A stretch of 64,000 bases of DNA from Candidatus Omnitrophota bacterium (GTDB lineage: Bacteria; Omnitrophota; Gorgyraeia; Zapsychrales; Zapsychraceae). Position numbers and translations under genes: made by a program. The stretch covers positions 5,275 through 69,274 of the forward strand of contig JAJDCA010000068.1 of assembly GCA_029261055.1 (NCBI GenBank), read 5' to 3'. The notes beneath the pieces were generated by a model. That model was not told the DNA's origin. It did not search any database and saw only the letters and a list, made by a program, of their open reading frames with translations. Below, piece by piece: positions 49,188 to 61,177 of the stretch (positions within the stretch are counted from its first letter, which is position 1; each line of letters opens with the position of its first letter).

Positions 49188-50591
49188 TTAAGCTGTTTTT
49201 CCTGCAGGGTTCATGAGTATCCAATGATAGAATCGGCGCATTAAAAACTGAAAATGCCTAAAAGATTTAATCGCCATTATATTAATAAAGAATACCTTAG
49301 GATTAAAATAAAAAGACAGAAAAGCCTTTCGTTTCAACGACAACAATTCTTTCCGTGAAATCCCCTGCGGAGTGTACGGGGCTGTCATAAACAAAAAATT
49401 ATTCCAGTCTACTTTTTCAATTTCTCCCGAAGCCACTAACTCATTATAACTCTCCGTCCCTGGAAGCGGCAGATAGGTAAAGAAATTGGCTCGAATCACT
49501 CCTAATTCTTTGGAAAGTCGGATCGTTGCGTTCATTTCTTCTCGAGTTTCTCCGGGATATCCCAAAATAAAAAAAGCGGCAACCGAGAACCCATGTTTTT
49601 TTATAAGAGCTACATTCTGACGCATTTTTTCTACTGTTGTCGCTTTTTTCATTTTCTTTAAAATACGGTCAGAGCCAGACTCAATGGCGACCGTCACAAG
49701 ATACTGACCAGCCTCCTTCATCAACTCTAATATCTCATCATCCAAACGGTCCATACGAATACCATTAGGCGTAGCCAAACTAATATCTAACTTAAGATCA
49801 ATAATCCCTCGCAAGACCGATTTACAATAATCCATATCAAATGTAAAATTATCATCAACAATATGAAACTCGCGCACCCCTCGTTCATAAAGCATAGTAA
49901 TATGTTTTTGAATATATTCTACACTGTGATGCCGTAGCTGCTTTCCCGACATTCTCGGAGCTGAACAAAATTTACATGAATAAGGACAACCCCGCGTTGT
50001 CATAATCGGAGCAATAGGAAATTTCTCATAAAAAGCACCATGCTGCGATTCAGGATACGTTTCCGGTGGCATCAAATCCCATGCAGGAAACCCCAAGGCA
50101 TCCAAATCCTGAACAAAGGCTGGAGGGTTTTGCACAATCTTCCCCTCTTGGTTTTTCCATATGAGCCCTTCAATGCCATCAAAAACTTTTTCTTTGCTCT
50201 CCAATGCCGATAAAAACTTTGGAAACCCAATCTCGCTTTCACTATTAAAAGCATAATCTACATAAGGATGAAACTGTTCAAAAGATTCGGAAGGAATGGA
50301 AGAAATGTGCGCGCCACCAACGACTGTTATTTTCTCAGGAAAAGCTTCTTTAATAATCTTTAACATCCTGAAAACTTTAGGCGTGTCAAAAGTATAACAT
50401 TGCACCCCAATCAAATCAGGATCGTGCTTAGCAACAACATCCTTCATCTCTTCATTAGACGTATTTTCTTTAATACAATCATAGATAACAACATCATGAT
50501 CTTTTCTAATCTGTGTCGCCAGATATCCCAAACCTAGGGAGGGCTGGATATGATCTGCTAAATTATTTGGTTTTACGAGAAGTACTTTCAT
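49188..50591 (-). CDS. B12-binding radical SAM protein
   Basis: N-terminal B12-binding domain (MKVLLVKPNN..., ITVVGGAHISS) and CPYSCKFC (a CxxxCxxC motif). Confidence 0.75.
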   Translation of the reverse strand: MKVLLVKPNNLADHIQPSLGLGYLATQIRKDHDVVIYDCIKENTSNEEMKDVVAKHDPDLIGVQCYTFDTPKVFRMLKIIKEAFPEKITVVGGAHISSIPSESFEQFHPYVDYAFNSESEIGFPKFLSALESKEKVFDGIEGLIWKNQEGKIVQNPPAFVQDLDALGFPAWDLMPPETYPESQHGAFYEKFPIAPIMTTRGCPYSCKFCSAPRMSGKQLRHHSVEYIQKHITMLYERGVREFHIVDDNFTFDMDYCKSVLRGIIDLKLDISLATPNGIRMDRLDDEILELMKEAGQYLVTVAIESGSDRILKKMKKATTVEKMRQNVALIKKHGFSVAAFFILGYPGETREEMNATIRLSKELGVIRANFFTYLPLPGTESYNELVASGEIEKVDWNNFLFMTAPYTPQGISRKELLSLKRKAFLSFYFNPKVFFINIMAIKSFRHFQFLMRRFYHWILMNPAGKTA

Positions 50592-50593
50592 AT

Positions 50594-51226
50594 TTAATTC
50601 ATCTCCTTTTGTGCTGCAACCCAAATATTCAAAAATACTTCAAAATAGCCTATCCGCATATTTTTACGCGTAAATCCTGCCTTTTCATAAAGACGAGTAA
50701 TTTTACAAGGGGTATAGGCATCTTTATGTTCGGCAAACTCAACAGGACTGACCAAACGAAACTTAGCCATAACCCTAAGGAGCGCATCTGTCCATGCGGC
50801 AGGCGTTGTCATAATAAAGGTTCCCGAAGGTTTTAAAATTCGACGAATTTCTTCCAGTTGTTTAATTAACATTTCTGGTTCAATGTGCTCAAAAACAGCC
50901 AACATTGTAACCACATCAAAATAATTATCTTCGAATGGCATTTCCACATCTTTTTCCAAATTATATCTTTTAAAAAAAATATTTTCTTTTTCCCAGCGTT
51001 GATGAGAATCATTTTCTACAACCTGATCTAATCCATATTTTTTATCAAATGGTGTATTTAACAAAAAAAGAGGATATGTCCCGCAACCGATATCCAGAAT
51101 TTTTCCTTTTCTTAATTCAGGTTTGATTAAACTATTTGCCTTTTTACACCTGAGTTGCGATAAAAGCTTGTCTAAAAACCCCGTGTCTCTTAAAATTTCT
51201 ATTTTTTCTTCTTTAGTTGTCATCAT
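50594..51226 (-). CDS. Class I SAM-dependent methyltransferase
   Basis: ILDIGCGTYP motif I ... VVTMLAVFEHI. Confidence 0.7.
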   Translation of the reverse strand: MMTTKEEKIEILRDTGFLDKLLSQLRCKKANSLIKPELRKGKILDIGCGTYPLFLLNTPFDKKYGLDQVVENDSHQRWEKENIFFKRYNLEKDVEMPFEDNYFDVVTMLAVFEHIEPEMLIKQLEEIRRILKPSGTFIMTTPAAWTDALLRVMAKFRLVSPVEFAEHKDAYTPCKITRLYEKAGFTRKNMRIGYFEVFLNIWVAAQKEMN

Positions 51227-51954: not shown

Positions 51955-53655
51955 TTAATAAGCAATAATAAACGGTAATGATTCTCTATTAACATTGACG
52001 GGAAATTGAGCAAATGTAACGTCTCCAAATGGAAGGTCAATGGAATCTTGTCTCTTTTGCTGAATATATTCTTTACTTTGAACAAAAAGATTTAAATCTT
52101 TTTTACGCAATATTTTCTCTTTTGATATACCAAAATCTGTTTTGTGTGCCCGATAAATCGATAAAGTATTCAACATTAACGAAAAAACGAGAGCCCCCAT
52201 TAATATTTTTGAAGGCTTATCAAGAATTCCTGCAATTAAAACAAACATCAAAGCAACAGGAATGTAAAGAAATCTTGTTTGATGTGATCCTGCCCACCAA
52301 GTAAGCCAATAGATCATAATAAAAAATGCTAAAATCGTAAACTGTTTTTTTGTAAATGAAATTATGGAATAATAAATAAACAAACCTAAAAAAAGGAGAT
52401 ATGGCAACCCTAACGGATAATCATATTTATTATTTACTCCTTTTTCTGGTATAGCAATAATCCATAAATGTTTTAGGAAATCTGAAAAAGAGCGACCATA
52501 TCCATAAAGATCTTTTTTATCTATGTAAGAATCTGCCGAATCAACAATTGATTGCCACTTCCTTGTCCCGTTATCAATATTTTTACTTACCTTGATTAAA
52601 CCAGTGCCAAATGGAAAAACCGGCGCCCCTGTATAATACAACGATTTAAATACAAAAGGGCCGCCAATGAGAGCGCTTAATAAAATAAACCTTAAGCATA
52701 ATTTAAAAAAATTTGGTTTTAGAAAAGAAACTTGCGCATTTTGTCTATCACTAATATTAAAACCCCATTGAATATCTCTGAACCCTATTTTCTTGAATAT
52801 CCAAAACAAAATAAACAAAGCTAGCATAAGTAACACCATTTGAAATGGAATAAATGATTTTGACCAAAATAGAAATGCAAATTCCGTAAGGCTCAAAAAA
52901 ATAGATCCTCTTAAAAAACTATCCAAAGCAGCAAGAAACAAATAACACATAACAATATCTAACATTGCCGTTCCCATTTGAATCCCAAAACCATGCGACC
53001 CCATAATGGCAAAAACAACAAGACTGGTACTCATTAATTTATTATGACTGAATCTTCCTGCCAGCCTTGCGGCTACAAGAATCTCCCCAACTAAGAAAAT
53101 AAACTGGGGTGATTTATTAGGAAGTTGCGTCACAAACCAATAGGGCGCAAGAGAAAAATTTAGTGGCAAAGGAAACAAATCTGCTGAAGACCATGGGATA
53201 TGCGCAAATGAATTTAAAATCAAATGCTGACGAGGAATCGTGTAATGATAATTTAATACATCATATTCTTGCATCAAATGGGGGGGATGGAGTGACGCAA
53301 AAAAAGCACACGTTAATATCAAAAAAACAAAACTACAGCCAAGAATGAAATAGATTCTTGTTGTTAAAGTAGAATCTAAAAACTCAGACTTCAACTCTTT
53401 GATCGTTAAAAAAAAATTCTCTTTATTTAAAAAAATAAGCACGACCGAAAAAAGAAAAAACAAAACAGAAGCTAACGGTGAGGTCATGCCGTTTTTTGTG
53501 TCAAAAAAAAATAATTCGATCCAATAAATACCATACCCAATTACTAACATGAATGTTGGTAAATGGGTCCATTCTAAACTTAACGTTTTAAAAATACGAT
53601 TGCTCTGCATACAATATAGCCTATGACGACAATAAGATAATACGCATCCCCCCAT
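51955..53655 (-). CDS. Polytopic integral membrane protein of unknown function (possible polymerase or GT-C-like)
   Basis: 566 aa and highly hydrophobic, with no diagnostic motif. Start uncertain. Confidence 0.4.
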   Translation of the reverse strand: MGGCVLSYCRHRLYCMQSNRIFKTLSLEWTHLPTFMLVIGYGIYWIELFFFDTKNGMTSPLASVLFFLFSVVLIFLNKENFFLTIKELKSEFLDSTLTTRIYFILGCSFVFLILTCAFFASLHPPHLMQEYDVLNYHYTIPRQHLILNSFAHIPWSSADLFPLPLNFSLAPYWFVTQLPNKSPQFIFLVGEILVAARLAGRFSHNKLMSTSLVVFAIMGSHGFGIQMGTAMLDIVMCYLFLAALDSFLRGSIFLSLTEFAFLFWSKSFIPFQMVLLMLALFILFWIFKKIGFRDIQWGFNISDRQNAQVSFLKPNFFKLCLRFILLSALIGGPFVFKSLYYTGAPVFPFGTGLIKVSKNIDNGTRKWQSIVDSADSYIDKKDLYGYGRSFSDFLKHLWIIAIPEKGVNNKYDYPLGLPYLLFLGLFIYYSIISFTKKQFTILAFFIMIYWLTWWAGSHQTRFLYIPVALMFVLIAGILDKPSKILMGALVFSLMLNTLSIYRAHKTDFGISKEKILRKKDLNLFVQSKEYIQQKRQDSIDLPFGDVTFAQFPVNVNRESLPFIIAY

Positions 53656-53731: not shown

Positions 53732-54853
53732 TCATTGCAATTCAAATTGTGCAATTTGCTCAAAAGAATGTATCATCCTGTGGCCATATGCAGATGGGGT
53801 AAATATTTTGAGAAACCGTTCCCGGTTTTCCCCCCCCATTTTCTTCCGTAATGTTTCATCATGAGACAATGTCAAAATTTTATCAGCCAATTGCGTTTCA
53901 TCACCTTTTGGAAATAAAATTCCGCCTTTGCCATCTTCGATAATTTCCGGAATTGTCCCCTCAATGGAAGCTACAATCGGAAGGCTTTCCGCCATCGCAT
54001 GCAAAAGGACCAGCCCAAAAACATCCCGATGCGTCGGAAAAATAAAAATATCGGCATTCCTCATAAGTTCCGTTCTTTTTTCATCACTTTCCACATACCC
54101 CAAAAATTTTACATACGGCTTCAAATTATTACTCTCAACGAATTCTTCGATTTCCGCTTTGAGTTCATTTGATTCAAACGGCCCTCCAAATATAAATCGA
54201 ATATTAGCATTTTTCTGAATAACTTTTGGAATCGCGTGTATCGCGGTTAAGACACCCTTTGTCCGACTAAGAAATGAAAAATAAAGTACTTCAACACAAC
54301 CATTTTTTTTCTCTTCCCTCTTTCCTTTATCATAAAAATCTGTCACACATCCTGGAACAGCCACTAATGTCGAAGAATCCATAAACCCTTCATATTTACC
54401 CTTCGTCCCCTCCCCCAAAACAATACTTGCTGTGGCCATCTCACAAAACTTCCTCACTAACCATTTATAAAAATTACTACTACTATCATACAACTCTCTC
54501 ACATACTGCCCCATATCATGAATAACAATACGACACCCTAATACCTTTCCAATTCCACAAAAAATAAAATCCTTCAAAAAAGGCATTTTATCAAAGCTCA
54601 TATTATAAAGAACATATTGTGGGCGCTTAGAAAGGATTAAATAAATATACTGAAAAAGATAACGAACCATTTTAAATATCTTTCTAAACGTTACTTTTTT
54701 ATGTGTGTCGTACGACCAAAAGTGCATATTTAAAAAGGTTATCTGAAAATGATCGACAAATTTTGACTCCATAAGCATTTTATACATCATGCTATGGCCA
54801 AAATAAGGAGGGGGCAGGGTTCCGCAAATAAGAATACGTGTTTTATTCTTCAT
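53732..54853 (-). CDS. GT4-family (RfaB-like) glycosyltransferase
   Basis: C-terminal ...IFIFPTHRDVFGLVLLHAMAESLPIVASIEGTIPEII... is the GT4 motif. Confidence 0.8.
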   Translation of the reverse strand: MKNKTRILICGTLPPPYFGHSMMYKMLMESKFVDHFQITFLNMHFWSYDTHKKVTFRKIFKMVRYLFQYIYLILSKRPQYVLYNMSFDKMPFLKDFIFCGIGKVLGCRIVIHDMGQYVRELYDSSSNFYKWLVRKFCEMATASIVLGEGTKGKYEGFMDSSTLVAVPGCVTDFYDKGKREEKKNGCVEVLYFSFLSRTKGVLTAIHAIPKVIQKNANIRFIFGGPFESNELKAEIEEFVESNNLKPYVKFLGYVESDEKRTELMRNADIFIFPTHRDVFGLVLLHAMAESLPIVASIEGTIPEIIEDGKGGILFPKGDETQLADKILTLSHDETLRKKMGGENRERFLKIFTPSAYGHRMIHSFEQIAQFELQ

Positions 54854-55152
54854 GAAAAAGATCTCACATGATCATAAACTGCCCGGCCTTAAACTTTTAA
54901 CTAATAGGCAGAATTTCACCGCCTATGAGCCATACGCAGACTGACAGTTTCCACTGTAAAAAATGTAAAACAATTTATAAAGATTTAAGAACTGCGGATT
55001 TAAATGTATCTATCGAACTAAATACTAGAGGATAGATTTTAAGTCTGTGATCTTTTCCAACACTCAATTCGCTGCAGTCGGAATTCCGACTGAGCGTAAG
55101 AGAACCTCGGAAAAGGTCATGAAAGTTTTTAGTATTGCTCTCTTAACTTCTC

Positions 55153-57225
55153 TTAAAACTTTCCATAATACATATGTTCCAAAGAAATAGCATTATCTTT
55201 TTTGCGCTTTAAAAGAGTAAGCCCTGTCAAAAGCCTGTTCGTTGTTCTTACCCAAACCGCATAGTAGGGACTGTCTGTCGGAGCTTTGGTTTCATTAATA
55301 ATATCGCCTAGCCAAAAATTACTTGCGCAATACGGACTGATCGTTCTGCGAGTAGTATAGTTTTTTCCGTCTGCAGTTACGACATCAATTTCAAAATAGC
55401 AGGATCTATCGTAATTCTTACCTGAAGAGAGATATATTATGCTAAACATCGTATCAAATCCATCAGGACCATCTAAGAATACCCCCCTTGAGAAAAGCTT
55501 TACGCTCTGGTGAGGGGTGCTTTTGAATTCTGTTGATCTAGGCAAGGTTTCTTCAAAACAAAAAGGTATGTTTGGTAATCCGCCTGCTCCAGCAGAGGTT
55601 GTCGTAAGATAAGGATTAAGTCTATGACTGAATCCTCCGTCTAGAGCTAAAGAGTAAGGAACATTCTGGCGGCCTTGCGGAATTGCACAAAATATCCCAC
55701 CTGATGAAATCTGAACATTATTATCTTTCAGATAGTTATTTAAATTCAAAATAGGATCCGTTTGATAATCGTATATCTTATCATTTTCATAAATTTTAAT
55801 TCCCTTATTATCAAAATATTGAAATGTAAATTCTTTGATCGGAAATTCGCTCTCGCCATGATAACCGAGAATAGAGTCTATTTTTTCATACTCTGGAAAT
55901 ATAGGATAGTGAAGTTGCCATGGATATATTCCGTATAGATCTAACTTTTCAAGTTCATCTTCTTTGTAAACATGTCCTTCCGCTGAATCCGGCCGATATG
56001 GATTGCCGCTTTTTTCTCCCCTGTAAGACGTTCCCGTTTGATGATAAGTATTCAGCCATGTGTTTTCAGGAATCGATTTTGTTGTATGATATAAATTTGG
56101 TCGATGCATACTTAAGTCTGATTTAATAAATAACCGTACGGCAGATACATTTTTTGATAATACATCGCTAAATAGTTCATTGATGTCCTGCATAACCATG
56201 TGCCCACGCTCAACTTTCTTCATGTCCCGTTCGTTTCTATGCTGCTCTCCATTTTGAAAGTATTCAAGTATTGCTTTTGGTTGTAACGGTTCCCGTTGAT
56301 TGTGGTTGAACATTGCAGCAACCAATCGATGACCTGGCTCATTATCCGGAAGAAATCCTCTAATAAAACAACAATCGGTACCAAATGTACCAAACCCTGA
56401 CTGATGATTACAAGCAATAGATTTGTCTCCCAGATAGTCAATGTAATATTGAAGAAAAGGACGAACTTTGCTTGTAATGCCTTCCGCTTCAAATTCGATT
56501 TCAATATATCCGCAAAAATCACCAAGATTCATTGTGCGAGAATCAATCACATATGTGCCCCCAGCAGGAATAAGAAATTGACCAGAATCAATTTGTCTTC
56601 CTTCAAAAGTTTTTAAACAAAATCGGAAATCAATAGGAAAAGGGTTCTCATATAAGCGGTCAAAATAATTATGTACTTGAATCACGGTTGCGGTGTTACC
56701 AGAAAAGAAATCTGAATAAGAATAATAAGGCGTGGCCTCCGATATAGAAATGCGCGTAACAATCTGATCGCCTTTGTTGTTGTCGTATAATATTTCATTC
56801 AAAGTATATGCAGCAACGTGATTAAAAGAAGCAACCAGCCACCCATCACAATCAGGAACTCCTGATTCGTAAGAAATAGGTTTAACCGTTTGCTTATTAA
56901 ATTTCTTACCAATGCAGCGTAAATCGTAAGAATAATAGCCTAAACATGAAGCTGGTTTAATATCAGGCACCTTTATATCTTTGGTAGTACAATCTACCAA
57001 TACAGCATATTTTTTTACACCAAATCGTTTAAAAATATTTACTAACGTTTCGGTGCTGCGCATCTGTGAGCGTTGATACATCCCGTCTGTAACGGAGGAA
57101 AATTGGGTTAAGATTGCTTTACCGGATTTTCTAATAACCTTATGCCGGGAAAGAAATCCTACCTTTGCGGATTTTTTTAAATTATTTTTACTTTTATCTA
57201 AAAAACTCTGTACATTTGATCCCAT
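55153..57225 (-). CDS. Hypothetical 690-aa protein, no recognisable domain (rich in aromatic residues, Gly and Cys)
   Basis: Long ORF in an operon-like arrangement. No signal peptide or known motif seen. Confidence 0.5.
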   Translation of the reverse strand: MGSNVQSFLDKSKNNLKKSAKVGFLSRHKVIRKSGKAILTQFSSVTDGMYQRSQMRSTETLVNIFKRFGVKKYAVLVDCTTKDIKVPDIKPASCLGYYSYDLRCIGKKFNKQTVKPISYESGVPDCDGWLVASFNHVAAYTLNEILYDNNKGDQIVTRISISEATPYYSYSDFFSGNTATVIQVHNYFDRLYENPFPIDFRFCLKTFEGRQIDSGQFLIPAGGTYVIDSRTMNLGDFCGYIEIEFEAEGITSKVRPFLQYYIDYLGDKSIACNHQSGFGTFGTDCCFIRGFLPDNEPGHRLVAAMFNHNQREPLQPKAILEYFQNGEQHRNERDMKKVERGHMVMQDINELFSDVLSKNVSAVRLFIKSDLSMHRPNLYHTTKSIPENTWLNTYHQTGTSYRGEKSGNPYRPDSAEGHVYKEDELEKLDLYGIYPWQLHYPIFPEYEKIDSILGYHGESEFPIKEFTFQYFDNKGIKIYENDKIYDYQTDPILNLNNYLKDNNVQISSGGIFCAIPQGRQNVPYSLALDGGFSHRLNPYLTTTSAGAGGLPNIPFCFEETLPRSTEFKSTPHQSVKLFSRGVFLDGPDGFDTMFSIIYLSSGKNYDRSCYFEIDVVTADGKNYTTRRTISPYCASNFWLGDIINETKAPTDSPYYAVWVRTTNRLLTGLTLLKRKKDNAISLEHMYYGKF

Positions 57226-57275
57226 TTTTAGCCTCCATTTTTCAGATTTGTATTTCTGTTATAGCACCGGTAAAC

Positions 57276-58502
57276 CTATTTAAGGGGCTCAAACCCATGA
57301 TTTTCGCAAGTTGATATAGCGATCCCGTCAATTTCAATTAACCATTCCGGCCTGCATACCGAACCATGAACAATCGTATAAGGAATGTTAATAGATTGTT
57401 GATTTAGAAAAGACCTAACAAGTAAAGAATCCGAAGGATCTCGAAGATAAACATTCATAAAAAACATGTTATCAAGCGACGCCCCGGCAGATTTCAACAG
57501 AGCCTCAATATTTTCAAGGGTTCTTTCTGCTTGGCCGATAACATCTTCCGGATATAAAACGTCTCCCTTTTTATCAATGCTTGCCGTCCCTGAGATATAA
57601 TAATGATTTCTGTCTCCGAATAAAACCTTAGTAGCTCTCTCAAAAGTTACACCGTAGTCACTGGTTGAATTTAAATATTCAAAAGCATTGATATACTCTA
57701 TTTGTTCTTTTTGAATGCCAAAAATTGACAGGGCGTCCATTGAAATGTGGGAATCTTTGAGTAAGGGCCTCCCCTCAATGCCAGTGCTTGCAATATAGTG
57801 TGTATCTTCCGTCATACCTTCTTCGGTGAAAATTTCTTTGCGTTTGCGTACCATTTGATCATAATTTTGATCTATGTCTCGGACATATATCCATGTACGG
57901 ATTGTGTTGCTTTCAAGAGTGGCGTTATTTTTTCTTAATAGGTCCCTCAATGATTTAAATATTTTATTCGTTTGATTAGTCACAGTTTCATTGTCATTAC
58001 TACTTTCAAACGCCTGATTGACTGTCCATAAAAATCCGTATCTATTTTGACGAACCAAAACAGCATTTGAATGAGGACCTCCATTAGAAAAAGAAACTTT
58101 CTTTTTTTGTAGGGGATTACCATCAGGCGTACTCATATGATAGGCATGCAAAATTACTTTTGTGCTTAGAAGGGGGGGTTGCTGCACGACTGAAACAGCC
58201 GTGTTTTTATTATCTGTATAAAGAAAACTTTTTGATAAAACATTAGACTGATTTGTAATATCGCTTACAAAAATTCTTCTGAATATGGCTGTGTCTAAAG
58301 ATAAATTTAAACTCTCAAGTGCATGCAAATAAAACCCTTCAATTTCCTTTAATTGCTGTTTAAACGAAAAAAGATTCTTATTTGGTGAGATAACTAGAGA
58401 GGTTTCTTGACATCCTTCCTCCGTCTGAAAAACACAGGCCTTAACACATCCTTCCGAAAATTGAAATGTTTTCATTCCATTCTGTACAACAGCATCAATC
58501 AT
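57276..58502 (-). CDS. Protein with tandem RidA/YjgF-like domains (possibly FkbO/Hyg5 chorismatase-like)
   Basis: The C-terminal GQAERTLENIEALLKSAGASLDNMFFMNVYL is a RidA/YjgF signature. A second, weaker copy lies mid-protein (TIRTWIYVRDI...). Confidence 0.45.
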   Translation of the reverse strand: MIDAVVQNGMKTFQFSEGCVKACVFQTEEGCQETSLVISPNKNLFSFKQQLKEIEGFYLHALESLNLSLDTAIFRRIFVSDITNQSNVLSKSFLYTDNKNTAVSVVQQPPLLSTKVILHAYHMSTPDGNPLQKKKVSFSNGGPHSNAVLVRQNRYGFLWTVNQAFESSNDNETVTNQTNKIFKSLRDLLRKNNATLESNTIRTWIYVRDIDQNYDQMVRKRKEIFTEEGMTEDTHYIASTGIEGRPLLKDSHISMDALSIFGIQKEQIEYINAFEYLNSTSDYGVTFERATKVLFGDRNHYYISGTASIDKKGDVLYPEDVIGQAERTLENIEALLKSAGASLDNMFFMNVYLRDPSDSLLVRSFLNQQSINIPYTIVHGSVCRPEWLIEIDGIAISTCENHGFEPLK

Positions 58503-58524: not shown

Positions 58525-59430
58525 TCACCCGTAACCGACAGGTGTTTCACCTTTTTTATTAATGCCCAACAACCAATGATGATACTCCTTTAATATATTT
58601 TCTACTTTTGTTTTTGATTCCCAAATGAAAAACTTCTTCAATCGTTGAGAAACTACTTCCGAAAAAATAACTGGAGTATGATTCGAAAAATGAATAGTAG
58701 CATTCGATTGTGTTATTTGAATAATTTTTTTTGCTAACTCATCAAGACGAATTGTATTTGTTGAGCAAACGTTAAAAACCCCATCAACACCTCCAAGCTC
58801 TATGCATCTCTTAAATAATTGAATTATATCATTAACGCAAACAAACTGAAGCATTAATTTCTTTGGTGCAAATATATCCAAAGCCTCTCCACTCATAGCC
58901 TGTTTGAACAAAACAGGAATTACAGCTTTCTCCGCCTGACCTGGACCGGAAATATTTACCGAACGAAAAATACACAAATTTTTACCACGAAATTGCGTGC
59001 GACAAATTTTTTCAGCCTCAAGTTTACTTTTCGCGTACTCATCTGAAGGATCTAAAACTGCTTCTTCATCAATGGGCATCCCTGTAGTTTTATAAACTTT
59101 TGAGGTTGATAGAAAAATAAAATTTTTAATTCTTGAAGAATTGATAAGATTTTCTGTCCCTAAAACATTAACTCTTTGATATTGATCCGCCTGTGGTGAA
59201 CCTGCGTGCGTAAAATTATACGCCCCCAAGTGAAAAACATAGTCAAATTCGACATCCAACAAAAAAGGCACTCCTAAATCCTGACAAAAAAAACCCTTCA
59301 CATTTTGAGTTATGGAACCATCCAATGGTTTGATATCCAATGCATATACATGCGCATCAGTTTTAACTAACTCTCTAACCAAAGCCCTACCAATAAATCC
59401 TCCTGCTCCTGTAATAAGTATGTTGCACAT
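58525..59430 (-). CDS. NAD-dependent epimerase/dehydratase (SDR family)
   Basis: ILITGAGGFIGRALVREL Rossmann motif. Confidence 0.75.
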   Translation of the reverse strand: MCNILITGAGGFIGRALVRELVKTDAHVYALDIKPLDGSITQNVKGFFCQDLGVPFLLDVEFDYVFHLGAYNFTHAGSPQADQYQRVNVLGTENLINSSRIKNFIFLSTSKVYKTTGMPIDEEAVLDPSDEYAKSKLEAEKICRTQFRGKNLCIFRSVNISGPGQAEKAVIPVLFKQAMSGEALDIFAPKKLMLQFVCVNDIIQLFKRCIELGGVDGVFNVCSTNTIRLDELAKKIIQITQSNATIHFSNHTPVIFSEVVSQRLKKFFIWESKTKVENILKEYHHWLLGINKKGETPVGYG

Positions 59431-60170
59431 TATGTTTTCTTTTTTTGTTTATCTTCCATTTTCTTTATCAATACTGTAGCATTATAAAGTGATTCGAAAG
59501 AGCCTGCGTCAGTCCAATGAGATTTAAGCATGGAGTAGGATAGCTGCTGCAGCTTAACATAATGAGCAAGAATATCTGTTACTTCATATTCCCCGCGAGG
59601 ACTTTTTTTTAATTTTCTTAAAAAAGCAAACACCTCAGGTAAAAACATCCATAGCCCCGTATTCACATAATGAGAAGAAGGATTCTTTGGTTTCTCTACA
59701 ATATTAATAATTTTCTTATCTTTAAATTTGACCACACCATAATTCTGGGGATCCTTAACTTTCGCAACAAGAATTTTAGCTTTAAATAAATTTTTTTCCT
59801 TTCGAAACTCCTTCACAAATTTCCCTACATCTTCACTCACCACATTATCCCCTAAAATAACCATAAATTCCTCGTCCTGCACAAAATTTTCAGCCAAAAG
59901 AAGAGCCGCCCCTGTTCCCGTATTCCCTTCCTGAATCTCATAACTAAACCGAGCGCCCCATTCCTTTCCAGAACCGAGCAAACGAAAAAAATCTCCGACA
60001 AATTCCCCTCCGGTCACAATCAAAATATCTTTGATCCCCGCCTTAATAAGCGTTTCCAACGGATAATAAATCATCGGCTTCTTATAAACCGGCAAAAGAT
60101 GTTTATTGGTAACTTTCGTTAATGGACGTAATCGTTGTGCTGTTCCTCCGGCAAGCAAAACCCCTCTCAT
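59430..60170 (-). CDS. rmlA: Sugar-phosphate nucleotidyltransferase, RmlA-like (glucose-1-phosphate thymidylyltransferase family)
   Basis: VLLAGGTAQRLRPLTKVTNKHLLPVYKKPMIYYPL parallels ILAGGSGTRLYPIT..KQLLPIYDKPMIYYPL of RmlA. The start is the MRGVLLAGG Met, giving a 4-nt overlap with rmlB. Confidence 0.65.
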   Translation of the reverse strand: MRGVLLAGGTAQRLRPLTKVTNKHLLPVYKKPMIYYPLETLIKAGIKDILIVTGGEFVGDFFRLLGSGKEWGARFSYEIQEGNTGTGAALLLAENFVQDEEFMVILGDNVVSEDVGKFVKEFRKEKNLFKAKILVAKVKDPQNYGVVKFKDKKIINIVEKPKNPSSHYVNTGLWMFLPEVFAFLRKLKKSPRGEYEVTDILAHYVKLQQLSYSMLKSHWTDAGSFESLYNATVLIKKMEDKQKKKT

Positions 60171-61177
60171 TTTTTTGCCCCCCAAAATCCTGTTAAATAT
60201 CTCTTTTCCATTTTTTCCTTTAATGGTCGCCACCAATCTTCATGAGCCTGATACCATTCAACCGTTTCCTTTAACCCTTCTGGCAAATCATATTTCGATT
60301 GCCATCCAATAGATTTCAATTTTGAACAGTCCAAACTATAACGAAAATCATGCCCGGGCCTATCCTGAACAAAAGATATAAATGATTCGTCCTTATTCAT
60401 TAATTTCAAAATTCTCCGCGTTAGATCAATATTTGTATACTCCTGATCTGCCGCGATATTATATACTTCTCCATTAACCCCACGATCAATCAAATGATAA
60501 ATCGCACTACAATGATCTTCCACATGAAGCCAATCACGAATTTGTTTTCCCTCACCAAAAATGGGCACCTTATGACCGTCGATCAAATTGGTAATAAACA
60601 ACGGGATAACTTTTTCAGGATAAGCTTGAGGTCCATATGTGTTGGCCGCACGTGTTATAATCGCAGGCAGATGATACGTTGAAAAAAAACTGTATGCCAA
60701 ACGATCCCCACCTAATTTTGCGGCTGAATAAGGATTACGAGGCTTTAACTCCGAAGACTCCGTGAAGCTCCCCTCCATAATTTGTCCATAAACTTCATCC
60801 GTAGATACCTGAATAAATCTCTTTAACTTTTTCTGTTTTCGAGATTCTTCCAATAAAACATATGCACCAATCACATCTGTCTGTAAAAACCCATAAGAAC
60901 TCTCAATAGATCTATCCACCGCAGCCTCGGCAGCAAAATTAATTACGACATCAACACCACCCATAACTTTCTTAACAAGAGCTTGATCGCAAATGTCCCC
61001 CTTTATAAATTCAAAATTATCCCGCCCTTCAAATTCTTTCAAATTTTTAAGGTTAGAAGAATACGTCAACTTATCCAAAACTCGTATTTCTGCACCGTCC
61101 TCCCTCTCATAAAGATATCGCACAAAATGACTTCCTATAAAACCTGCCCCACCTGTGATTAAATATGTCTTTTTCAT
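60167..61177 (-). CDS. rmlB: dTDP-glucose 4,6-dehydratase
   Basis: ITGGAGFIGSHFVRYL..., extended SDR, 336 aa, adjacent to rmlA. Confidence 0.8.
   Translation of the reverse strand: MKKTYLITGGAGFIGSHFVRYLYEREDGAEIRVLDKLTYSSNLKNLKEFEGRDNFEFIKGDICDQALVKKVMGGVDVVINFAAEAAVDRSIESSYGFLQTDVIGAYVLLEESRKQKKLKRFIQVSTDEVYGQIMEGSFTESSELKPRNPYSAAKLGGDRLAYSFFSTYHLPAIITRAANTYGPQAYPEKVIPLFITNLIDGHKVPIFGEGKQIRDWLHVEDHCSAIYHLIDRGVNGEVYNIAADQEYTNIDLTRRILKLMNKDESFISFVQDRPGHDFRYSLDCSKLKSIGWQSKYDLPEGLKETVEWYQAHEDWWRPLKEKMEKRYLTGFWGAKK

Follow-up and report, generated by a model that had tools for sequence, protein, structure and literature searches.

The question raised by this locus is what a protein without any recognizable domain does in the middle of a glycan gene cluster. 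The stretch analyzed, hereafter the window, comprises 64,000 nucleotides (nt) of contig JAJDCA010000068.1 from a Candidatus Omnitrophota bacterium (assembly GCA_029261055.1), and the gene under study, hereafter the target, encodes a protein of 690 amino acids (aa) on its minus strand. We found the target to be the founding member of a rare, previously undescribed protein family, whose genes show conserved linkage with those of a second protein, the partner, bearing a RidA domain. The reading that we favor, to which we would give a probability of about one in two, is that the target is a cytoplasmic enzyme of a new family, or a catalytic or substrate-binding subunit, acting together with its chorismatase-fold partner on a surface-glycan precursor that is a keto acid or a keto sugar. 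The two genes and the translation signal of the target were located as follows.

55153..57225, minus strand: target coding sequence, 690 aa plus stop codon (55153-55155), from the list of open reading frames (ORFs), the translation and full-length homologues
57232..57236, minus strand: Shine-Dalgarno sequence GGAGG, 6 nt 5' of the ATG at 57225, read from the sequence
57276..58502, minus strand: partner gene, 408 aa, with a C-terminal RidA domain (PF01042), ending 50 nt upstream of the target

The target gene is real: a frame of 690 codons in DNA with 37% guanine plus cytosine (GC), together with full-length homologues displaying 27-43% identity, is far beyond chance. An earlier note, made from the sequence alone, had described a long coding ORF at 55153-57225 flanked by a gene of glycosyltransferase family 4 (GT4; 53732-54853) and a RidA-like gene (57276-58502), and both statements were borne out. 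Translation starts at the ATG at 57225, separated by 50 nt from the stop codon of the upstream gene. The target presented the highest Tyr content of the 29 ORFs of the window (6.5%), which agrees with the composition first proposed; the supposed richness in Trp, Phe and Gly did not hold, Trp being low (0.7%) and Phe (6.2%), Gly (7.2%) and also Cys (1.9%) ordinary, and Lys was modestly low (6.7%, with 5.6% in the RidA-domain neighbor). No paralogue of the target was found elsewhere in the window.

A word-indexed search of 5.8 billion proteins retrieved eight relatives of the target, the closest of them (43% identity) from a metagenome-assembled Omnitrophica genome, and repeating it with a 24-sequence alignment returned the same eight proteins and nothing further. 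An exhaustive profile (hidden Markov model) search of 1.84 billion cluster representatives yielded 64 at E <= 1e-3 and 36 at E <= 1e-30, around 25 of the 64 being full length (620-720 aa). The protein, previously regarded as an orphan, thus belongs to a small family spread over several phyla. Genomes and metagenomes were scanned with an eight-sequence alignment, the 24-sequence one being too divergent for pattern building, and target loci (referred to below as L followed by a number) were recovered in Omnitrophica, Terriglobia, Syntrophobacteraceae, Desulfovibrionaceae and Thermodesulfobacteriota. These loci come from at least four phyla, the family occurring in Omnitrophota, Desulfobacterota, Thermodesulfobacteriota and Acidobacteriota. 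The cultured Maridesulfovibrio ferrireducens carries one member (WP_092159348.1; 669 aa, 30% identical, annotated as hypothetical). Four clades, 28-34% identical to the window protein, were distinguished: clade A (the window and Omnitrophica), clade B (L013, L014 and M. ferrireducens), clade C (Syntrophobacteraceae and Terriglobia) and clade D (L048 and most of the remaining representatives).

The absence of a recognizable domain was confirmed. No Pfam or NCBIfam family matched the window protein at its curated cut-off, and 24 family members searched against Pfam gave just four chance-level matches (E >= 0.09). Among the protein chains of the PDB no match was obtained at E <= 1 with the single sequence (phmmer), nor at E <= 10 with the 24-sequence profile.

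The main clue to the role of the target is its pairing with the RidA-domain neighbor, which the earlier note had not noticed. Taking as informative the 14 locus groups with enough flanking DNA, a partner homologue was present within 6 kb of the target in nine, and these included all four clades. The partner lies directly upstream of the target, at 20-50 nt, in the window, in Omnitrophica, in L014 and in M. ferrireducens; in L006 a single row on one strand comprises the target, the partner (9 nt after the target), KdsB and WaaA; and the majority of clade C loci show the target convergent with an operon that encodes the partner, KdsB, WaaA and a protein of 357-393 aa without known function. The linkage of target and partner genes is therefore conserved. 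A description of this two-gene module was not found in the literature searched.

The contexts of the target loci were always surface-glycan or ulosonic-acid genes. Thus, the neighbors in clade C were KdsB (187 bits for a cut-off of 155) and a WaaA-like transferase; in Omnitrophica L001, two NeuB homologues, aminotransferases, acetyltransferases and an ABC exporter; in L014, a NeuB-like protein, a synthase of the 7-phosphate of 3-deoxy-D-arabino-heptulosonate (DAHP; 384 bits for a cut-off of 335) and a DapA-like aldolase; in M. ferrireducens (L043), a divergent gene of the DAHP-synthase family (201 bits, under the cut-off) directly before the partner, together with guanosine diphosphate (GDP)-mannose genes and sugar O-methyltransferases; in L048, NeuB, PseF-like and PseC-like proteins, a 4,6-dehydratase and a NanM-like methyltransferase; and in the window, RmlA-like and RmlB proteins, a short-chain dehydrogenase/reductase (SDR), glycosyltransferases and Wzy-like proteins. 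NeuB-, PseF- and PseC-like genes are accordingly found among the neighbors in L001, L014 and L048. The recurrent theme is that of nucleotide-activated keto sugars, above all 3-deoxy-2-ulosonic acids derived from phosphoenolpyruvate (PEP). The occurrence of the family in related glycan clusters, proposed earlier as a check, was thus found in four divergent clades. A third, universally conserved partner was not seen besides generic SDR dehydratases. The genes next to the pair in the window are the following.

53732..54853, minus strand: GT4 glycosyltransferase (PF00534, PF13692), downstream of the target
58525-59430, minus strand: SDR reductase/epimerase (Pfam), same gene row, upstream
59430-60236, minus strand: RmlA-like nucleotidyltransferase (Pfam), upstream
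60167-61177, minus strand: deoxythymidine diphosphate (dTDP)-glucose 4,6-dehydratase, RmlB (NCBIfam TIGR01181, 420 bits for a cut-off of 365)

Read from its listed TTG start, the RmlA-like gene shares 70 nt with the RmlB gene, and its Pfam match sets in only at residue 25; translation probably begins further downstream.

Some other neighbors were considered and set aside. A 386-aa neighbor that seemed conserved in L001 is probably an antisense artifact, the sister contig L002 having a DDE transposase on the opposite strand at that place and the translation looking like junk. The 513-aa protein after the partner in L048 is unrelated to the target and corresponds to a NanM-like sugar O-methyltransferase, and the 357-393-aa neighbor of clade C, when tested, was not a relative of the target either. 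This last family (L012 9983-11095, L005 12619-13800 and L009 9976-11049, all on the minus strand, and relatives) had no Pfam or NCBIfam match; in 10 of 18 locus groups, all of clade C, its gene separates the target gene from waaA, and it is tied to kdsB and waaA. A pair formed by a histidine kinase and a sigma-54 activator upstream in clade C raised the possibility of sigma-54 control, but the region upstream of the target yielded no -24/-12 element. In L014 (70-2922) three pyruvate- or PEP-dependent aldolase-type genes precede the partner-target pair in one row, namely a DapA/KdgD-like gene, a NeuB-like gene and a DAHP synthase with a bona fide score, an unusual mix for a glycan cluster.

The partner scored 67.3 bits on PF01042 (gathering cut-off 27.3) and so contains a RidA domain, although just one of its three segments of around 130 residues is recognizable as such; its R384 aligns with the carboxylate-binding Arg of PH0854 and RidA. 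A profile of 21 partner sequences matched solved chorismatases across their two C-terminal domains (5AG3, E 4.7e-12; 5A3K, E 3.4e-10; 4BPS, which is FkbO, E 6.3e-10), covering residues 124-338 of Hyg5 and 135-342 of FkbO. Structures 5AG3 and 5A3K, deposited as "putative pteridine-dependent dioxygenase", we take to be Hyg5, as the numbering around E334 fits and 5A3K carries a Cys to Ser change at position 327. The invariant E390 of the partner aligns with E334 of Hyg5, and C383-R384 with C327-R328. E334 is essential in Hyg5 and protonates the enolpyruvyl methylene of chorismate (PMC7170507). The partner therefore displays both the active-site Glu and the multi-domain RidA-fold architecture of a chorismatase. 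On the FkbO/Hyg5 model (TIGR04444), however, it reached 47.6 bits for a cut-off of 325, and its orthologue in M. ferrireducens (WP_092159346.1) 52.5 bits. Since these scores are far under the cut-off, and since the Glu and the Arg are general features of RidA proteins, we call the partner chorismatase-like and not a chorismatase; it is a distant relative of FkbO and Hyg5.

The comparison with the FkbO/Hyg5/XanB2 chorismatases (multi-domain RidA-fold proteins; 4BPS, 5AG3) thus reveals a common arrangement of the two C-terminal domains, with the essential Glu and the preceding Cys-Arg invariant, whereas the partner is around 60 residues longer and lies in glycan clusters of anaerobes, in contrast with the polyketide and pigment clusters of known chorismatases, for which no companion resembling the 690-aa protein has been reported. 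With the imine deaminases of the RidA family, among them the fusions named "3x-RidA" (Niehaus et al. 2015, PMC4433059), the partner has in common the PF01042 domain and the carboxylate-binding Arg, its overall architecture being closer to that of chorismatases than to 3x-RidA. Literature searches linking chorismatases with lipopolysaccharide (LPS) or 3-deoxy-D-manno-octulosonic acid (Kdo), or concerning M. ferrireducens, returned nothing relevant.

The partner family is large, with at least 5,686 clusters whose source names are "Rid family hydrolase" or "enamine deaminase RidA". Its companions in aerobic Proteobacteria and Bdellovibrionales are instead a 2-oxoglutarate (2OG)-Fe(II) oxygenase and a small protein of unknown function. 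Partners linked to the target (38-48%) and to the oxygenase (43-44%) are about equally similar to the partner of the window, which suggests one chemistry serving different downstream enzymes. The oxygenase-linked arrangement constitutes a second recurring module of this large unannotated Rid-like family: in L044 (7001-9165), L046 (4954-7654) and L047 (6001-8527) a chorismatase-like Rid protein of around 390 aa is followed by the oxygenase (PF13640), and proteins without Pfam match are placed directly after it in L046 and L047 (205-241 aa) or around 260 nt beyond it in L044 (254 aa). The small proteins adjoining the partner gene in aerobes were tested as relatives of the target and are unrelated to it.

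These resemblances raise the best surviving alternative, namely that the partner is a true chorismatase, forming 3- or 4-hydroxybenzoate or a dihydroxycyclohexadiene carboxylate, and that the target converts or attaches this acid to give an aryl- or alicyclic-decorated glycan or glycoside, comparable to the p-hydroxybenzoate glycosides of mycobacteria. Extra DAHP synthases are typical of chorismate-consuming pathways, and a gene of this family is placed directly upstream of the partner in M. ferrireducens and another one in the row of L014; the DAHP-synthase family, however, also takes in sugar-acid synthases of the Kdo 8-phosphate type. The matches of the partner profile to Hyg5 and FkbO at E 1e-10 to 1e-12, with the catalytic Glu and the Hyg5-type Cys-Arg kept (PMC7170507), and the frequency of sugar O-methyltransferase and 6-deoxy-sugar genes as neighbors would also agree with it, whereas the 47.6 bits for a cut-off of 325, and the presence of the same Glu and Arg in RidA proteins in general, would not. 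Neither a coenzyme A ligase nor an acyltransferase for an aromatic acid was seen in any locus, and the clade C neighbors KdsB and WaaA are unconnected to aromatic acids. On balance we consider a true chorismatase unlikely.

The structure of the target was predicted with AlphaFold. The model from the eight-sequence alignment was mediocre (predicted local distance difference test, pLDDT, of 68), and the AlphaFold 2 (AF2) model from the 24-sequence alignment was confident (pLDDT 85.9; predicted template-modeling score, pTM, 0.86). In the latter, the protein is divided as follows.

57061..57225, minus strand: residues 1-55, N-terminal extension of basic helices (11 Lys/Arg, 2 Asp/Glu), modeled with low confidence
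56740..57054, minus strand: residues 58-162, small alpha/beta domain with invariant D78 and W129, pLDDT >90
55156..56739, minus strand: residues 163-690, four beta-sandwich domains in the AF2 model

The N-terminal extension is a basic helix in clade A and is partly gapped in the aligned clade C homologues. According to the AF2 model the beta-sandwich boundaries are at about 163-252, 253-385, 418-548 and 570-690, and each sandwich closes with the order strand, strand, strand, helix, strand. Homology was detected between domains 4 and 5 (hhalign 91%, E 1e-6) and a weak match between domains 3 and 5, the protein having therefore grown by internal duplication.

Across the 24 sequences, which are 24-43% identical to the window protein, 26 columns were invariant. 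Most of these residues are polar (D78, D172, Q216, H274, Q275, R375, N377, H395, N552, R674 and D677), and several belong to three long, conserved loops that link strands or domains: the inter-domain loops carry H274-Q275-x-G277, R375-x-N377, H395 and N552, with R674 and D677 in the last domain. No Cys was invariant in this alignment. Neither signal peptide nor membrane segment was present in the 24 members, the protein being cytoplasmic and soluble. The predominance of polar residues among the invariant ones suggests an enzyme, and in the model the compact arrangement with invariant polar loops would resemble a catalytic or ligand pocket more than an adhesin built like beads on a string.

Foldseek gave generic matches only with the pLDDT 68 model, and with the pLDDT 85.9 model it retrieved from the PDB and BFVD only generic sandwich arrays (template-modeling score, TM, <= 0.14). 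Neither solved structures nor predicted viral ones gave a global match (TM > about 0.5). The structure prediction and Foldseek search proposed earlier thus led to a confident model without a relative of known fold, and neither sequence nor fold searches found a confident match to a well-characterized family.

The sole fold matches were macroglobulin and immunoglobulin (Ig)-like arrays, namely complement C3/C5, alpha-2-macroglobulin, the C-terminal barrels of transglutaminases and the sandwich domains of glycoside hydrolase family 2 (GH2). Like them, the target contains beta-sandwich domains in series, and no fewer than two of its own arose by internal duplication. In contrast, it shows TM values <= 0.14 and identities of 6-13%, is compact (pTM 0.86) and cytoplasmic, and unlike these matches it has no signal peptide, invariant Cys or glycoside-hydrolase catalytic domain. 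Membership of the alpha-2-macroglobulin/complement C3 family was rejected on account of the lack of signal peptide, invariant Cys and Pfam A2M domains and of a length of 690 vs. >1200 aa. A transglutaminase was likewise discarded, there being no invariant Cys and no Transglut_core match, and the fold match being limited to the barrel domains.

Distant paralogues of the target were found in uncharacterized proteins of 526-560 aa (for instance L001 12103-13683, minus strand), with an hhalign E value of 9e-5 over 428 columns. They have in common with the target the motifs "YF.R.Y..PFP...RF" and, at the C-terminus, "EH.Y.G"; unlike it, they are devoid of the N-terminal alpha/beta domain and of the HQSG and HRPN loops, and they are unannotated. 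None of the more distant relatives (526-660 aa) matched a Pfam family. Similar proteins of 540-560 aa appeared among the weak matches of the exhaustive search, and in Omnitrophica L001 the 526-aa paralogue converges on the target homologue.

Four Ig-like sandwiches with fold matches limited to binding or structural arrays, a richness in Tyr and Phe like that of carbohydrate-binding modules, and the basic N-terminal helix of clade A would all be expected if the target were no enzyme, acting instead as a cytoplasmic carbohydrate-binding protein, scaffold or chaperone for glycan assembly, perhaps held at the membrane by the basic N-terminal helices. However, the invariant His, Asp, Arg, Asn and Gln on conserved loops and the pTM of 0.86 favor a fixed pocket over a flexible array, and the N-terminal extension is gapped in the aligned homologues of clade C. 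We regard a non-enzymatic role as rather improbable, a little more so than a true chorismatase.

Least probable of all, and in our view a very small chance, is that the target has a function unrelated to glycans and hitch-hikes in variable glycan islands, including the case of a foreign gene taken up recently: exchange is known to be frequent in glycan clusters, the distribution across four phyla is patchy and transposases adjoin some copies (L002, L033), but the base composition and codon usage of the target match what is usual in the window, searches of plasmids and phages revealed no homologue, and the recurrence of the same partner and class of neighbors in four clades, at around 30% identity and with different gene orders, would be left unexplained. 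The earlier suggestion of a horizontally acquired gene had called for a comparison of composition with the neighbors. The values obtained (GC 0.368, GC at third codon positions 0.292, codon-usage distance 0.238) were all inside the range of the neighboring genes and showed no sign of foreign origin; recent horizontal transfer is therefore unsupported and, given also the lack of plasmid and phage homologues, was rejected. The patchy spread of the family fits an older transfer of glycan-cluster modules.

The reading that we prefer, a new enzyme or subunit acting with the chorismatase-like partner, can be put as a sequence of steps. The Rid-like partner would hold the alpha-carboxylate of the substrate through its conserved R384, and its E390 would protonate an enol, enol-ether or enamine carbon, as occurs in chorismatases and RidA. 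The target might bind the sugar or acid by means of its Tyr/Phe-rich sandwiches and use the His, Asp, Arg, Asn and Gln residues of its long loops, which are conserved, for the following step. Once tailored, the keto-acid or keto-sugar precursor would be incorporated into a surface glycan, such as LPS core, O-antigen or capsule. We infer enzymatic activity of the target, cooperation between the two proteins and a substrate of this class. Kdo, nonulosonic acids, DAHP-like acids or dTDP-6-deoxy sugars are the products of the clusters in which the target genes are placed. More specifically, and more tentatively, we see here a possible two-component system of anaerobes, with a new enzyme fold and a chorismatase-fold neighbor, for an undescribed modification of a PEP-derived acid (a sugar of Kdo or nonulosonic type, or a chorismate-derived acid) that would provide a new building block of LPS or surface glycans.

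Several observations weigh against a joint enzymatic role. No catalytic motif or cofactor site was recognized in the target, and Ig-like sandwiches in tandem occur more typically in proteins with a binding or structural role than in enzymes. The partner family is around 100 times the size of the target family and is mostly found without it, sometimes pairing with the 2OG-Fe(II) oxygenase instead, so the coupling is not obligatory. Five of the informative groups (L009, L031, L032, L036 and L039) had no partner within 10 kb; the synteny of clade C is largely among fairly close relatives (60-90% identity) and weighs less than the count of loci would indicate; and no ulosonic-acid gene was seen within reach of the target in the window. 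The earlier proposal of a novel, possibly glycan-modifying enzyme fits the lack of a known family or fold, the polar invariant residues and the glycan clusters, which do not prove it.

Between the target and the GT4 gene there is a spacer that is the largest in the minus-strand gene row.

54854..55152: intergenic spacer of 299 nt, on the 3' side of the target and the 5' side of the GT4 gene, from the table of gaps
55048..55119: imperfect palindrome of 72 nt centered on the perfect 18-mer CAGTCGGAATTCCGACTG, from a blastn self-match, the sequence and the fold

The existence and unusual size of this gap, given as around 300 bp by the earlier note, were confirmed, although it had been placed before the ORF; with the target encoded on the minus strand, it comes after the stop codon of that gene and before the GT4 gene. 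The spacer is strongly structured on both strands (folding z-scores of -4.6 on the minus and -5.1 on the plus strand with respect to shuffled controls). The palindrome begins 33 nt past the stop codon of the target and has no U-tract. A search of Rfam gave no family match for the spacer, and neither the remainder of the window nor the other loci contained a further copy of it. It may act as terminator or processing site, or bind a protein, and so separate two sub-operons.

Other features of the window deserve mention. A giant ORF of 7,482 aa (13425-35873, minus strand) with a TTG start and 0.0% Cys lies between the genes of purine biosynthesis and the glycan region. Omnitrophota are known for giant genes, and it is from this phylum that the closest homologue of the target likewise comes. 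A Phe-rich protein (11.3%) of 566 aa (51955-53655, minus strand), apparently a multi-pass membrane protein without Pfam or NCBIfam match, is encoded between a gene of glycosyltransferase family 2 (GT2) and the GT4 gene, and could be an undescribed glycan polymerase, ligase or glycosyltransferase-C (GT-C)-type enzyme. The glycan gene row ends with a B12-binding radical S-adenosylmethionine (SAM) protein (49188-50624, minus strand), whose best matches were P-methyltransferase-like and HpnJ-like models, all under the cut-off. Genes for B12 radical-SAM proteins are also close to target homologues in L007 (3306-4727) and L048 (1-717); that of L007 is accompanied by a GT2 and a YdjC gene in an arrangement resembling HpnI/J/K.

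Uncharacterized families are common in glycan clusters. If the target is an enzyme, it would represent a new catalytic architecture, without sequence or fold relative among characterized proteins, and would mark an undescribed step in the biosynthesis of LPS or surface glycans by anaerobes that have been little studied (Omnitrophota, sulfate reducers, syntrophs and Acidobacteriota). In that case it would also provide the first functional handle on the "Rid family hydrolases" of around 390 aa (>5,600 clusters), a family that keeps chorismatase-like catalytic residues yet occurs outside secondary-metabolite clusters. The presence of a homologous gene trio in the cultured M. ferrireducens makes the question directly testable.

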